DNA from: Escherichia coli | Lineage (GTDB): Bacteria; Pseudomonadota; Gammaproteobacteria; Enterobacterales; Enterobacteriaceae | NCBI RefSeq assembly: GCF_003790525.1 | Contig: NZ_CP033632.1 | Direction: 5' to 3' (one strand) | Length of the DNA stretch: 64,000 nucleotides | In this document: positions 18,001 through 24,000 of the stretch, piece by piece | Layout: each line of letters opens with the position of its first letter | How positions within the stretch are numbered: position 1 is the first letter of the stretch | Program-made: the position numbers

Positions 18001-21000
18001 ACCGTCTTCCGGAGACTGTCATACGCGTAAAACAGCCAGCGCTGGCGCGATTTAGCCCCGACATAGCCCCACTGTTCGTCCATTTCCGCGCAGACGATGA
18101 CGTCACTGCCCGGCTGTATGCGCGAGGTTACCGACTGCGGCCTGAGTTTTTTAAGTGACGTAAAATCGTGTTGAGGCCAACGCCCATAATGCGGGCGGTT
18201 GCCCGGCATCCAACGCCATTCATGGCCATATCAATGATTTTCTGGTGCGTACCGGGTTGAGAAGCGGTGTAAGTGAACTGCAGTTGCCATGTTTTACGGC
18301 AGTGAGAGCAGAGATAGCGCTGATGTCCGGCGGTGCTTTTGCCGTTACGCACTACCCCGTCAGTAGCTGAACAGGAGGGACAGCTGATAGAAACAGAAGC
18401 CACTGGAGCACCTCAAAAACACCATCATACACTAAATCAGTAAGTTGGCAGCATCACCGATAAAAGGCATTTACACACAATCCTAAACAGACTCCTATAT
18501 TTCAGATTTTGTTATCAACGCATTTCAAATCTCTTAGAAATCATTACTGCCGTCATATTTTCCGAGGCAGCTCACCACCTAACTATGTCTTATCAACAAT
18601 ATTTTGTGAAGGATATTTATAATGTAAAGACACATCAGAAACGATATTCCACACTCAACATGGCAGATGTATTATGGTATCCATGTTCTCCAAGTTGAAT
18701 GCCTGCATCAGCCCGGAATGCTACTTCTGGTGTTATCATTCCCACAACACCACCATTTATTTCTCCGATATCACGCGCACCATCCTGGTATATACTTACA
18801 CCATTCATACTGGTGCCGAAAACACGACTATTGTGCAACCAGTGTGCCTCCACAAATGGTCTGAACGGAACCGCATACCGCGTATTTTTACCGTTTTTGC
18901 TGGTAAGCCATGTTCTTGCTCCCAGGCGGGTGAGAATATTTCCGTTACCGGTATTTTCAATACTGGTTCCGTTACTTTCATGATATTTGTCTGATTTTAC
19001 ATTCATCCGGACAACCTGAAGCTGCGGCTGAACATACCATTCATGACTTCCCTTGTAATTGTCGGTAAACTCTCCAGCCTTCCATGAATATCCTGCTTCC
19101 AGAGATACCGTAAACCCTTTTGACTTCCATGACTCAGCAGGCAGCCGTTCTCCATTTATATGATTATCAAACCAGCTGTATTGCAGCCAGCTATCAAGAT
19201 AAGAACCATTGTGTGTTTCATCATTGGCATACCATGTTGCATAAAGACCCGCTGTGTATCCATTCATTCTTCCTTCCGAATGGTATCCGGTGCTCAGGGC
19301 ATTCGTACTGTTATTATTATGACCATAGCCAGCCATCATACCTGTATGCCAGCGATCGGTACCATTCAGGCTCCACTGAGCTATATCTCCCCCTATTAAC
19401 ACAACGTAGCTATTCCCCCGGGTTCTCAGCTGACTACTGTTGTCACGCCAGCGATTATGTTTTCCTTTATTATACATCCAGATACCTGCTTCATTTTCTT
19501 CTCCTGTCATGTGGCTGATATACAACTCCTGTCCCTGTCGTTCATACAGATTCGTTACAAACAGATTATTTGCAGCAGCAATACTGGCAACATAGCTACC
19601 TGCCTCAGGACGCAAATTATTATCATGGTTTTCCGGTACAGCTTCAGGTTGTGGTACAGCTTCAGGTTGTGGTACAGGAATGTCTTTTCTGCTAATCAGA
19701 TACCAGTTAGTGCTGTTAATCCCCTGACCACGTTTCAGTATGTAATCATAAGCTCCGGCTGTAATACGTTCCGTCTGAATGAATTCAGCATTATCAGCAT
19801 TGCCACTGACGTGAATCACTTCAATCCCATTAAGTGTCTCTGCACCAGTACCACCGGCCTGAGTAACAGCGACACGGGTACGGCCACTGGCATTACCTTT
19901 AATCACCAGACGATCTGTTTTCGAATTGTCACCACCTGTTTCTGTCTGGAGGAGAATAAGTCCATTTCTGCCAGTGTAATTCCCTCCGACAGTCAGTATA
20001 TTACCCGGCATATATGTAGTGAGATCGACTATACCACTATTGCTCAGATTTCCTGCAACGCCCCCAAACCCGGAGAGTTTGCCCTGCTCTTCAACAATGA
20101 CCTGGTTACTGCCGAGCATCACCGGTGAATCTGCGTTCCCCAGTATCACTGTCCCCTGAATAATATCTGTCATCCCGGTCCATTTTGCGTTATCGCTAAT
20201 GTTCAGTGCACCTGCTCCCGTCTTGCGAACATTACCATAACCACTGATATTGTTGGTAAGCTGCCATGCTGATGTACTGTTCAGAGTTAATGTGCCATAG
20301 TTATCAACAAAGGCTGTCCCCAGATTATCAGCCGTGGATACAGCCAAATGAGCCCCCTTATTCACGGTAAAAACACCGGAAAAATTACGATTATTACCCG
20401 TTATATCAAGCATTCCCCCATTTATGTTCAGAGAACCATCCCCTGCAATAGTACCTGCAGATTCTCCTCCATTATTCAGTATCAGGCTTCCGCCATGAAT
20501 GTTCAGCACAGAGCCTGCAGCCGTCAGTAGTTTGCTTATTGTCTGAGGATACCCATTCATATCCAGTTCTGCGCCACGGGATAAATATAAATACTCAGTC
20601 CGACCAAGAGCATCAGGTGCAGCAAGAATTAATACGCCAGATTTAACCTCTGTATTTCCTGTATAATTGTTTGTTGCAGAAAGTATAAGAGTACCATTAC
20701 CTGATTTTGTCAGACTTTTGCCGTCCCAGCCATCATATAATAAAGGTGAAAGATTATCGGAAAGAGAAACGCCTATGTTCAGAGTGGCATCTTTTTCTAT
20801 ATTAAAGGTTCCATATCCCATGCCTTTTGTATTATTCCATCTCAGCATGGATATCAGTTTGTTATCGTCGTCATTTAAAGACGTATAAACATAACTTTCA
20901 GCACCTTCTGTCAGTAATGCATTGTATTGTACAATGTGACTATTATCAGCGATCGAGATACCTGTGTCTGACGACAATAATGTGTAATAGTCCTGAGTCC

Positions 21001-24000
21001 AGTTCTTAATTGATGTGTCTATATTAAGCCATGAATCACTTTTTAATGTAATAGTATTTGCGTGAACATTAGCATTTCCTACAGACAGGTTCATAGATGC
21101 GTCTTCATCAATACTTATATTTCCGTTAAAAATGGAGTTCTTGCCTGACAGATAAACAGATGAGCCATTCCCAATCATTAGCCCACCATTAATTGCTGTT
21201 GCGTTATTGATGTTTTTAATAATTAATTCATTTGTACCATTAACAGGTATACTAGCTAGTTTAATATCACCATTAATCACAGAACCTGAATAAATATCTA
21301 ATGAATTATACCCGCCAGAAAAAATTATTGATGTATTATAAGCATCTTTTTGGCTATTATATAATCCTGAAAGATTACCATGATTATTAATATGGATATC
21401 TTCTCCATAAACAGAGCAACCACCGTCGGGGCCATATCCCCCCTGAACAATACCGTTATTATTCAAAGTGATTTGATTTCCAGAAATAGCATCTCCCCCT
21501 TGTTTTATTCCATATCCTCCAGATATCATGTTGTCGTTAGTAATGAAAAGATTACTACCATTAATACCATCACCACCGTTTACGCCATTACCGCCCAATA
21601 TTCCTCCGGAATTATGCACTGTAATATTGCTACCGGTTACACCGGAACCACCTGTCCCACCTACATCATCACCTCCGTATATACTTCTGTAATTATCAAC
21701 TATAATATCATCCCCGCTTAACCCTGCACCTCCGCTACTTCCTGAGCCACCAAGACCATTACCCCCATATACATTTCTGTAATTGTTTATAGATATTTTG
21801 TTGCCACTAACAGCAATTCCACCATTATATCCATCGCCTCCCCAAACACTACCATTATTATTTAGCGTAAAGTTTTCACCGTAGACACCTGCACCACCGA
21901 TTGATGTATTGCTTGTTCCTCCTTTGATGTTAATACTGCTTTCAACAGATAGTATATTTTGAGTATAACTTGTTTTATACGGCACGCTGATATTAAGCGC
22001 CGCGTTTCCATCAACACCTGTAATACTCCTGGTTATACTTTCAGGTATACCATTACCATTCAGTTGTATTGTTTGCGCACCAGAAAAATGAGACTGCACA
22101 GAATAAATTATACTGACCAGAAATTGTAAAATTCGTATATTCTTATTCATACTGTTTTTTCTTTAGTGATGCATTTTTATCAACCATACAAGCACATTAT
22201 TTCATTGATACTAATCACATCAGGATGAATGTTTTTTCTCAATAGAAATAAGTGTCTTTATTCCTTACCAATTTATTCTGGTTATTCCTCTTATCCAGAC
22301 GTCTCGTGATACTCCCTGTATTTATTATAGAGTATATATATGTACTGCGTTTAAATCATGAAGACGACAACCTGTTTTACATAAATTATTCCTAAGTATT
22401 TTTCCAGAGAAGACCTAGGTATAATGATGTGCACTGTCTGGTTTTCTTACAACTGACTTAGCGATCTGCATATCCGTGATAACGCCTGAATAAATAGGAC
22501 GAGAGAACTCTTAACCAAATAATCTAAGGAAGGTGCGAACAAGTTCCTGATATGAGATCATCATATTCATCCGGAGCGCATCCCAAAGGGACATCATGAG
22601 CCATCAACTCACCTTCGCCGATAGTGAATTCAGCACTAAGCGCCGTCAGACCCGAAAAGAGATTTTCCTCTCCCGCATGGAGCAGATTCTGCCATGGCAG
22701 AATATGACCGCTGTCATCGAGCCGTTTTATCCCAAGGCGGGCAATGGCCGACGGCCCTATCCGCTGGAGACCATGCTGCGTATTCACTGCATGCAGCATT
22801 GGTACAACCTGAGCGACGGTGCCATGGAAGATGCCCTGTACGAAATCGCCTCCATGCGCCTGTTTGCCCGATTATCCCTGGATAGCGCCCTGCCGGATCG
22901 CACCACTATCATGAATTTCCGCCACCTGCTCGAGCAGCATCAACTGGCCCGTCAATTGTTCAAGACCATCAATCGCTGGCTGGCCGAAGCAGGCGTCATG
23001 ATGACCCAAGGCACTTTGGTGGATGCCACCATCATTGAGGCACCCAGCTCTACCAAGAACAAAGAGCAGCAACGCGATCCGGAGATGCATCAGACCAAGA
23101 AAGGCAATCAGTGGCACTTTGGCATGAAGGCCCACATTGGTGTCGATGCCAAGAGTGGCCTGACCCACAGCCTGGTCACCACCGCGGCCAACGAGCATGA
23201 CCTCAATCAGCTGGGTAATCTGCTTCATGGAGAGGAGCAATTTGTCTCAGCCGATGCCGGCTACCAAGGAGCGCCACAGCGCGAGGAGCTGGCCGAGGTG
23301 GATGTGGACTGGCTGATCGCCGAGCGTCCCGGCAAGGTAAAAACCTTGAAGCAGAATCCGCGCAAGAACAAAACGGCCATCAACATCGAATACATGAAAG
23401 CCAGCATCCGTGCCAGGGTGGAGCACCCGTTTCGCATCATCAAGCGGCAGTTCGGCTTCGTGAAAGCCAGATACAAGGGGCTGCTGAAAAACGATAACCA
23501 ACTGGCGATGTTATTCACCCTGGCCAACCTGTTTCGGGTGGACCAAATGATACGTCAGTGGGAGAGATCTCAGTAAAAACCGGAAATAACGCCAGAAATG
23601 GTGGAAAAAATAGCCTAAATAGGCTGATTCGATGTGTTTGCGGGAAAAAAATCGGCCCAGATCCGCGAAATTTTAATCAGCGAGTCAGCTTGGGAAGAAA
23701 TGACCTGCTTATTCGCACCTTCCCTAAAGAACGTGGAACGAGGAAACTTCCCGGACGAGTTTCAACTTCAAATGCATTATCAGTCATTGTCCCAAATCCG
23801 TCTCCAAATAGACGGCGTTGCAAGAGTGGAGACCCTGATTGATACGAAGAAGATCATGGATAGGCAATAACATTAGGAATGCACGGTAACTACGAATAAT
23901 CGAAACCTCGGTACGTAATAGTTTACCGAGCAAGTTACGCGTTATGTTATCTGATTCTGACATGTCGGATTGTCCTTGAGTCAATACAATAGCACAACTC

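Follow-up and report, generated by a model that had tools for sequence, protein, structure and literature searches.

Does an insertion sequence (IS) that lies just upstream of a large adhesin gene switch that gene on, and is such a gene out of place on a plasmid of phage descent? Both questions are raised by a 64,000-nucleotide stretch of DNA from Escherichia coli (assembly GCF_003790525.1, contig NZ_CP033632.1), referred to here as the window, in which a first-pass annotation had noted an AIDA-I/Ag43-like autotransporter gene with an IS5 copy upstream. By its sequence, the gene is aatA, which encodes autotransporter adhesin A of avian pathogenic E. coli (APEC) and has already been named and characterized. 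The upstream element is ISKpn26 and not canonical IS5; it appears to mark an IS-associated deletion rather than a clean insertion, and most likely alters the expression of aatA little or not at all. This reading as a whole, from the identity of the gene to the small effect on its expression, is considered quite probable.

The first step is the identity of the gene itself, which occupies the following position.

18635-22150, minus strand: aatA coding sequence, for the intact type Va autotransporter adhesin AatA (ORF list; 1171 codons plus stop).

The open reading frame (ORF) runs without interruption and its product has 1171 amino acids (ORF listing). In a full-length protein alignment, 1132 of these 1171 residues (97%) are the same as in the AatA of pAPEC-O1-ColBM, in whose record the autotransporter coding sequence covers 3,498 bp at 81930-85427; approximately 33 substitutions separate the two alleles, and the sole gap, of 6 residues, corresponds to one PQPEAV unit. 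The window protein shows no differences from RefSeq WP_089571546.1, annotated in pYLMB15b, pEF7-18-51_1 and p1-H9, and despite this identity an exact-sequence look-up in a collection of 15 billion proteins returned no match. The name AatA rests on the direct comparison with pAPEC-O1-ColBM because, in a scan of NCBIfam, no named equivalog model reached its cut-off, all falling far below. The APEC gene, of 3,498 bp, has been described on pAPEC-O1-ColBM and, as a chromosomal gene, in IMT5155, BL21 and REL606, and insertion sequences flank it in every described case (PMC2944236). The gene is thereby already known, and its IS-rich surroundings have also been described before. Dai et al. (2010) demonstrated AatA expression and adhesion to chicken DF-1 fibroblasts, the latter for the alleles of both IMT5155 and APEC O1 (PMC2944236), and published experiments with AatA alleles that are 97-99% identical show DF-1 adhesion and a contribution to virulence. 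Adhesion of the window AatA to chicken cells would be expected from its identity to these tested alleles. The comparison with named autotransporters proposed in the first-pass annotation, which had named a truncated or otherwise defective protein as the outcome that would count against it, gave a full-length match to AatA and no defect.

The architecture of the protein, from its N-terminus to its C-terminus, is encoded as follows.

22073-22150, minus strand: presumed Sec signal peptide, codons 1-26, MNKNIRILQFLVSIIYSVQSHFSGAQ (translation).
21365-21901, minus strand: Gly/Asn-rich imperfect repeats of 24-30 amino acids in the N-terminal passenger, approximately residues 84-262 (composition/motif listing; DNA direct repeat at 90-bp spacing).
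19736-20002, minus strand: autochaperone, AC_1/Pertactin-like, residues 717-805 (PF18883, E=6e-24; IcsA 3ML3, AIDA-I 4MEE).
19635-19672, minus strand: two PQPEAV units, residues 827-838 (exact 18-bp tandem direct repeat at 19635-19670).
18638-19483, minus strand: C-terminal translocator, consisting of linker and 12-stranded β-barrel, residues 890-1171 (PF03797, TIGR01414, 4MEE).

As read from the translation, a basic n-region, hydrophobic core and SGA-Q motif mark the N-terminus, and for the near-identical protein of IMT5155 a signal peptide has been predicted with SignalP (PMC2944236). Residues 27-260 contain 24.8% Gly and 14.1% Asn and comprise about seven imperfect repeats of 24-30 amino acids with the pattern I-x-I/V-x-N-x-G-x-I-x-GG. 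PATR repeats and a VirG insertion domain (VID) were matched in the passenger (Pfam), and the IcsA passenger structure (5KE1) aligns by sequence to residues 376-549; the features of a repetitive passenger, predicted to be β-helical, are thus present. The autochaperone, located just upstream of the barrel, was matched by PF18883 (AC_1) and PF03212 (Pertactin) of Pfam and by the IcsA autochaperone (3ML3). The autotransporter β-domain (PF03797) covers residues 890-1149 (E=1e-34; Pfam), the generic autotransporter barrel model TIGR01414 of NCBIfam scores 324 bits against a cut-off of 16, and the AIDA-I barrel and autochaperone structure (4MEE) aligns to residues 711-1171 (E=2e-70). Judged by these matches, AatA is a classical type Va autotransporter of the AIDA-I type. 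The first-pass annotation was correct in describing an intact autotransporter of this type, with an uninterrupted frame of 1171 amino acids, a barrel and an autochaperone, which can now be specified as AatA; the Gly/Asn-rich repetitive passenger and the PQPEAV linker that it described are both seen in the translation. By analogy with the mechanism of the family, the Sec signal peptide would carry AatA to the periplasm, the 12-stranded β-barrel (residues ~890-1171) would insert into the outer membrane, and the passenger would be threaded outward to fold, from the autochaperone (717-805), into a β-helix, with the Gly/Asn-rich N-terminal repeats forming the adhesive surface.

Across AatA alleles, one, two, three or four copies of PQPEAV give proteins of 1165, 1171, 1177 and 1183 amino acids, respectively, and so the linker is a small length polymorphism rather than a defect. 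Two collections were searched, namely 5426 complete E. coli genomes and 72,556 plasmids. The gene is present in 687 of the 5426 genomes, at 486 chromosomal and 253 plasmid places, and on 230 PLSDB plasmids, of which Escherichia accounts for 216, Salmonella for 11 and Shigella for 3.

The second step concerns the element upstream of aatA and the tetranucleotides that adjoin it.

22528-23723, plus strand: ISKpn26, IS5 family, 1196 bp (16-bp terminal inverted repeats; RefSeq annotation of identical context).
22524-22527, no strand: CTAA adjoining the left end of ISKpn26 (also in uninterrupted loci, at p20170403CC-1 10555-10558 and p1-H9 1550-1553).
23724-23727, no strand: CTAA adjoining the right end of ISKpn26 (pre-exists within trhR in p1-H9 at 9001-9004; p20170403CC-1 15851-15854).

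The element displays the features of the IS5 family, with a length of about 1.2 kb, terminal inverted repeats of 16 bp (GGAAGGTGCGAACAAG / CTTATTCGCACCTTCC), a single transposase ORF and YTAR flanks. The transposase ORF (22596-23576, plus strand; 326 amino acids) is intact and is transcribed away from aatA, on the minus strand. The element differs from canonical IS5, with 91.5% identity to the IS5 copy of phage P1, and bears the RefSeq name ISKpn26 in an identical context. Hence, the claim of an IS5 copy about 375 bp upstream of the gene holds for an IS5-family element, at 377 bp, and does not hold for canonical IS5.

The third step is to locate the promoter of aatA relative to this element.

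22151-22527, minus strand: upstream region of aatA kept in the window, 377 bp (alignment to pAPEC-O1-ColBM; upstream mapping).
22229-22242, plus strand: published FNR-binding site ATGTTTTTTCTCAA, 79 bp from the aatA ATG (14-mer unchanged in the window).

The gap between the ATG and ISKpn26 measures 377 bp (373 bp if the CTAA is not counted), with a guanine-cytosine (GC) content of ~33-35%; AT-richness (GC 33-40%) extends over the upstream region and the 5′ third of aatA. The proximal 253 bp on the 5′ side of the ATG are ~99% identical to the expressed allele of pAPEC-O1-ColBM, where an IS3-family element adjoins beyond this point. For aatA to be expressed and to give DF-1 adhesion, 100 bp of native upstream DNA suffice, which places the promoter within those 100 bp, and both IMT5155 and APEC O1 produce the AatA protein (PMC2944236). 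According to Barbieri et al. (2017; PMC5481319, Table 1), expression depends on FNR, which binds in electrophoretic mobility shift assays and has a predicted site, ATGTTTTTTCTCAA, at a distance of 79 bp from the ATG. A consensus sigma-70 scan of 22151-22527 gave no hit on the strand of aatA and, over the region as a whole, no more hits than in shuffled sequences; for this reason the position of the promoter rests on published work on near-identical sequence. Nor could the scan reveal an outward promoter at the end of ISKpn26. The shared 253 bp and the unchanged FNR 14-mer indicate, together with the published work, that aatA is served by a promoter of its own, of the type found in expressed alleles, with ISKpn26 well outside it. 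Transcription would start from this FNR-responsive promoter, ~100 bp or less from the ATG, in a region that is intact in the window. The description of an IS in an AT-rich promoter region therefore stands as to the AT-richness (GC ~33-35%) and fails as to the promoter, which lies no more than 100 bp from the ORF (PMC2944236).

With the promoter so placed, activation of aatA by ISKpn26 is not supported, since aatA is not a silent gene, 377 bp separate the element from the start codon, the displaced DNA is IS debris, and the transposase points away. The proposal that IS5 activates a silent gene lacks support on several counts: aatA has its own promoter within 100 bp, it is expressed in strains that lack the element, the orientations are opposite, and the junction is that of a deletion. 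Two modes of activation were considered and set aside. Activation of the glpFK and fucAO operons by IS5 needs the transposase gene and the operon to run in the same direction (PMC11894529), and here the transposase is on the plus strand and aatA on the minus strand, the opposite of this requirement. By the literature, aatA also lacks the silent state that IS5 activation of any type presupposes, being expressed from its native 100-bp promoter and in IS5-free strains (PMC2944236).

A different route to activation, indifferent to orientation, would be relief from silencing: the IS5-type element would break up or displace an upstream silencer, for example H-NS-bound AT-rich DNA, and aatA expression would rise, as with IS1 and IS5 insertions upstream of bgl or flhDC. 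The AT-rich composition of the aatA upstream region and of its 5′ third (GC 33-40%) would suit such a mechanism, IS5 is known to prefer YTAR sites in easily melted, H-NS-prone DNA and to activate bgl, flhDC, glpFK and fucAO (PMC5493358), and several independent IS boundaries are clustered 5′ of aatA. It is nonetheless improbable, given that aatA is expressed from 100 bp of native DNA and in strains without the element (PMC2944236), that the element, 377 bp from the ATG, is beyond all of the DNA held in common with the expressed pAPEC-O1 allele, that its orientation is contrary to that required at glpFK and fucAO (PMC11894529), and that the DNA replaced is IS debris. Moreover, the junction occurs in only 2 of the ~687 aatA-positive genomes, with no sign of selection.

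The boundaries themselves lie at -253 for the IS3-family element of pAPEC-O1, at -247 for an ISKpn26 copy in pLR-25_1, at -377 for the ISKpn26 of the window, and at -248/-240, with a 9-bp duplication, for an IS903-like element in pEF7-18-51_1 and pMUB-MIN9-2. Three of these at least four independent boundaries fall within 14 bp (window 22390-22404), and the fourth is at 22524-22527. This cluster could be an AT-rich hotspot, or merely the edge of the DNA needed for expression. It seems doubtful that the region is a recurrent IS landing zone, selected for trimming AT-rich DNA and thereby for tuning or de-repressing an H-NS-prone acquired adhesin; if true, it would be a natural plasmid-borne analogue of the activation of bgl or flhDC.

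The fourth step is the origin of the junction. An empty-site probe, a 200-mer in which both flanks are joined through a single CTAA, was found in 0 of the 5426 E. coli genomes and in 0 of the 72,556 plasmids. Instead, the sequence that continues past the left CTAA as in p20170403CC-1 was found in 405 of the genomes, and in that plasmid the two flanks are 5.3 kb apart, each with a CTAA of its own. In p1-H9, which carries the identical AatA allele and the identical darB junction (described below), 7,447 bp separate the two CTAA sites. Within that interval are an IS91 remnant, IS3-family and IS30 elements, traH′, genes for a TraF-like thioredoxin and a hypothetical protein, and the 3′ part of a trhR pseudogene. 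The trhR pseudogene of p1-H9 spans 8442-9240 and the junction, at 9001, falls inside it; its other part remains in the window.

23728-23963, minus strand: 5′ remnant of the trhR pseudogene, cut by the ISKpn26 junction (trhR annotation under this sequence in many plasmids).

The exact aatA-side junction of ISKpn26 was found in 2 of the 5426 genomes and in 3 PLSDB records representing two plasmids, pMTY9754_IncHI1B and pYLMB15b, so that, with the window included, it is known in three plasmids. The sister plasmid pYLMB15b shows an additional loss of 524 bp directly beside the same ISKpn26. Beyond -377 in the intact loci there is no regulator gene, and only an IS91 transposase remnant and IS3-family fragments are present.

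The lack of an empty site and the separation of the flanks by 5.3-7.4 kb in relatives argue for an IS-associated deletion. In this scheme, an ancestor resembling p1-H9, with the order aatA, IS debris, traH′/traF-like genes, trhR and mobI, would have lost 7.4 kb between two CTAA target sites, either by intramolecular transposition or by recombination between two ISKpn26 copies, leaving one copy of ISKpn26 joined to both sites. Such a loss would have taken only IS debris and the remnants of transfer genes. The insertion of IS5-type elements occurs at YTAR, very often CTAA (PMC5493358), and so matching tetranucleotides are to be expected from an adjacent deletion or from two-copy recombination, and are not proof of a duplication. 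The reported 4-bp duplication is accordingly real in that CTAA is found at both ends; its creation by insertion is contradicted by the separate CTAA sites that lie 5.3-7.4 kb apart in relatives.

The alternative is a simple insertion of ISKpn26, with a true 4-bp duplication, into an unsampled ancestor that already carried the 7.4-kb deletion. The perfect flanking CTAA and the intact element with both inverted repeats are what such an event would produce, but the empty site appears in neither collection and both CTAA tetranucleotides pre-exist separately in relatives. A simple insertion would also demand that the prior deletion end exactly at two IS5 target sites and that the element then hit the same tetranucleotide, while the 524-bp loss in pYLMB15b links ISKpn26 to adjacent deletions; this course of events is given little credence.

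Several points weigh against the favoured interpretation of a deletion junction with little consequence for expression. There is no consensus sigma-70 site on the aatA strand within the 377 bp, the perfect CTAA on both sides is equally predicted by a simple insertion, and both insertion followed by deletion and two copies followed by recombination fit the data. A position effect, such as the loss of AT-rich upstream DNA that could nucleate H-NS, may also occur.

On a larger scale, aatA is bracketed by copies of a second element, IS1, located as follows.

17691-18458, minus strand: IS1 copy, 176 bp downstream of the aatA stop (no target duplication; 318 bp of p20170403CC-1 absent beside it).
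26133-26900, minus strand: second IS1, in direct orientation, with no flanking duplication (9 mismatches in 768 bp).

Two direct IS1 copies thus enclose aatA, ISKpn26 and mobI, which raises the possibility of a composite transposon that moves the three together. This arrangement, and the occurrence of aatA beside IS1 in many different contexts, would be in keeping with such a unit. Neither IS1 copy, nor the pair taken together, is enclosed by a 9-bp duplication: the flanking sequences, AAAAATAAC and TGTTGTCTG, differ, and on this mismatch the composite transposon was rejected as a candidate. Relatives, furthermore, keep the backbone order with fewer or differently placed IS1 copies. Given this variable placement, the IS1 copies of the window look like independent insertions with adjacent deletions, and a composite transposon is very unlikely.

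The last step concerns the replicon that carries aatA, segments of which align to phage P1. Window 11523-16206 contains lxc, ulx and the 3′ part of darB (97.8% identity); 40956-46486 contains bplB, pmgG and gp21-gp23 (97%); and 53709-64000 contains the end of dmt, tRNAs, ban, dbn, gp5, gp6 and gp24, with ban, dbn, gp5, gp6 and gp24 at 99%. The boundary of the first segment is the junction with the cargo.

16107-16306, no strand: junction of the truncated P1 darB, with P1 homology up to 16206, and the start of the cargo island (P1 alignment).

The darB remnant lies at 12238-16206 and the cargo at 16207-40955. The window contains nothing that matches the 14.4-48 kb interval of P1 (prt, pro, lyz, tail fibres, baseplate, sit, tub), and sim, ant, kilA, repL and rlf are likewise without a match there. 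In the window, 24.7 kb of IS-rich cargo stands in place of approximately 38 kb of P1 (~14.4-52 kb), a block that extends from the 5′ part of darB to rlfB inclusive and comprises the lytic replicon as well as the genes for portal, lysis, tail fibre, baseplate, tail tube and immunity. The same P1 genes are absent across the whole of the related plasmid pMTY9754. With the virion, lysis and lytic block absent in the window, the replicon looks like a defective P1 derivative, to judge from these alignments. The designation of a phage-plasmid is consequently sound as to the P1-derived backbone and not as to a complete phage gene set, the ~38-kb block being absent within the window. The cargo island bears phd/relE, aatA, mobI, three IS1 copies, IS3, mgtC, and MFS, MBL-fold and solute-binding genes, and the aatA block would sit within an IS-rich island that took the place of part of a P1-derived plasmid.

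A number of further observations were made on this replicon. The partition/replication region between gp23 and upfA (window 46486-51195) has no nucleotide match to P1 parB, parA or repA. Close relatives are typed in PLSDB as IncHI1B, some with a MOBH relaxase, and so surveys based on replicon typing would not flag them as P1-like. A gene of the mobI(A/C) type (24721-25206) is preceded, ~260 bp upstream, by an array (24290-24463) whose 42-44-bp units are imperfect palindromes (TACATAGGGTCACTTTTT..AAAAGTGACCCTATGTA). The array may be an origin of transfer, or protein-binding DNA of another kind, that forms part of a remnant of MOBH-type transfer genes. In pMTY9754_IncHI1B, positions 23773-39189 hold a cellulose synthase cluster (bcsA, bcsB and bcsC), with a group II intron within it, along with genes for GGDEF and EAL proteins, which adds further surface and biofilm cargo to the same P1-derived backbone.

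The junction of darB with the cargo is common to 136 of the 5426 complete E. coli genomes, making aatA on this backbone common and not unexpected. The view of aatA as unexpected cargo on a phage-plasmid is thus not supported, given these genomes and also phi456, an infective P1-like phage (OR339795.1), in which a full-length aatA (9001-12498) is present as Orf60, annotated as 'hypothetical protein' and 97% identical to the AatA of pAPEC-O1. In the study of phi456, VirulenceFinder found no virulence genes and aatA is never mentioned; curing of the phage lowered DF-1 adhesion and colonisation, which the authors credit to type 1 fimbriae (PMC10967188). The reduction in DF-1 adhesion after curing was seen in the same assay in which AatA acts. 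A literature search on aatA together with phage-plasmid or P1-like elements found nothing relevant. As first described, the finding matters little, being that of a known virulence-associated adhesin with a rare IS variant outside its mapped promoter. The point of wider use is epidemiological and concerns the spread of aatA through P1-type elements: the gene is carried by a widespread P1-derived plasmid lineage (136/5426 genomes) and by an infective phage, and such elements may be an under-recognised vehicle for AatA among Enterobacteriaceae of poultry and humans.

Compared with the known copies of aatA in pAPEC-O1-ColBM, IMT5155 and BL21, the window copy has the same domain order, is likewise flanked by insertion sequences and shares 97% amino acid identity over its full length (pAPEC-O1-ColBM comparison). 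The AatA of pAPEC-O1-ColBM has 1165 amino acids, whereas that of the window reaches 1171 through a second PQPEAV unit, and the window gene resides on a P1-derived plasmid in contrast to the ColBM virulence plasmid or chromosome of the other copies. Among the better known autotransporters, AIDA-I, TibA, Ag43, IcsA and ShdA share with AatA the layout of barrel and autochaperone and give partial NCBIfam matches. AatA scores below every equivalog cut-off, however (268 bits against 1200 for AIDA-I, for example), and its passenger repeats differ in type from theirs; by these scores it is a separate member of the family and an orthologue of none of the five.

The known cases of IS5 activation in E. 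coli K-12 (glpFK, fucAO, bglGFB and flhDC) resemble the window in having an IS5-family element at CTAA in AT-rich DNA upstream of a gene. The window differs from them in that aatA is not silent and that the element is ISKpn26 and not IS5, lies 377 bp from the ATG, faces in the opposite direction and forms a deletion junction. Finally, the P1-like elements that carry cargo (phi456, p1-H9, pMTY9754_IncHI1B and pYLMB15b) have their counterpart in the window, with its segments of P1 backbone at 97-99% identity. In phi456, aatA is found at another backbone position than in the window, whereas pMTY9754 and pYLMB15b have the exact ISKpn26 junction of the window, and the truncation of darB and the phd/relE-aatA island are those of the 136 E. 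coli genomes.

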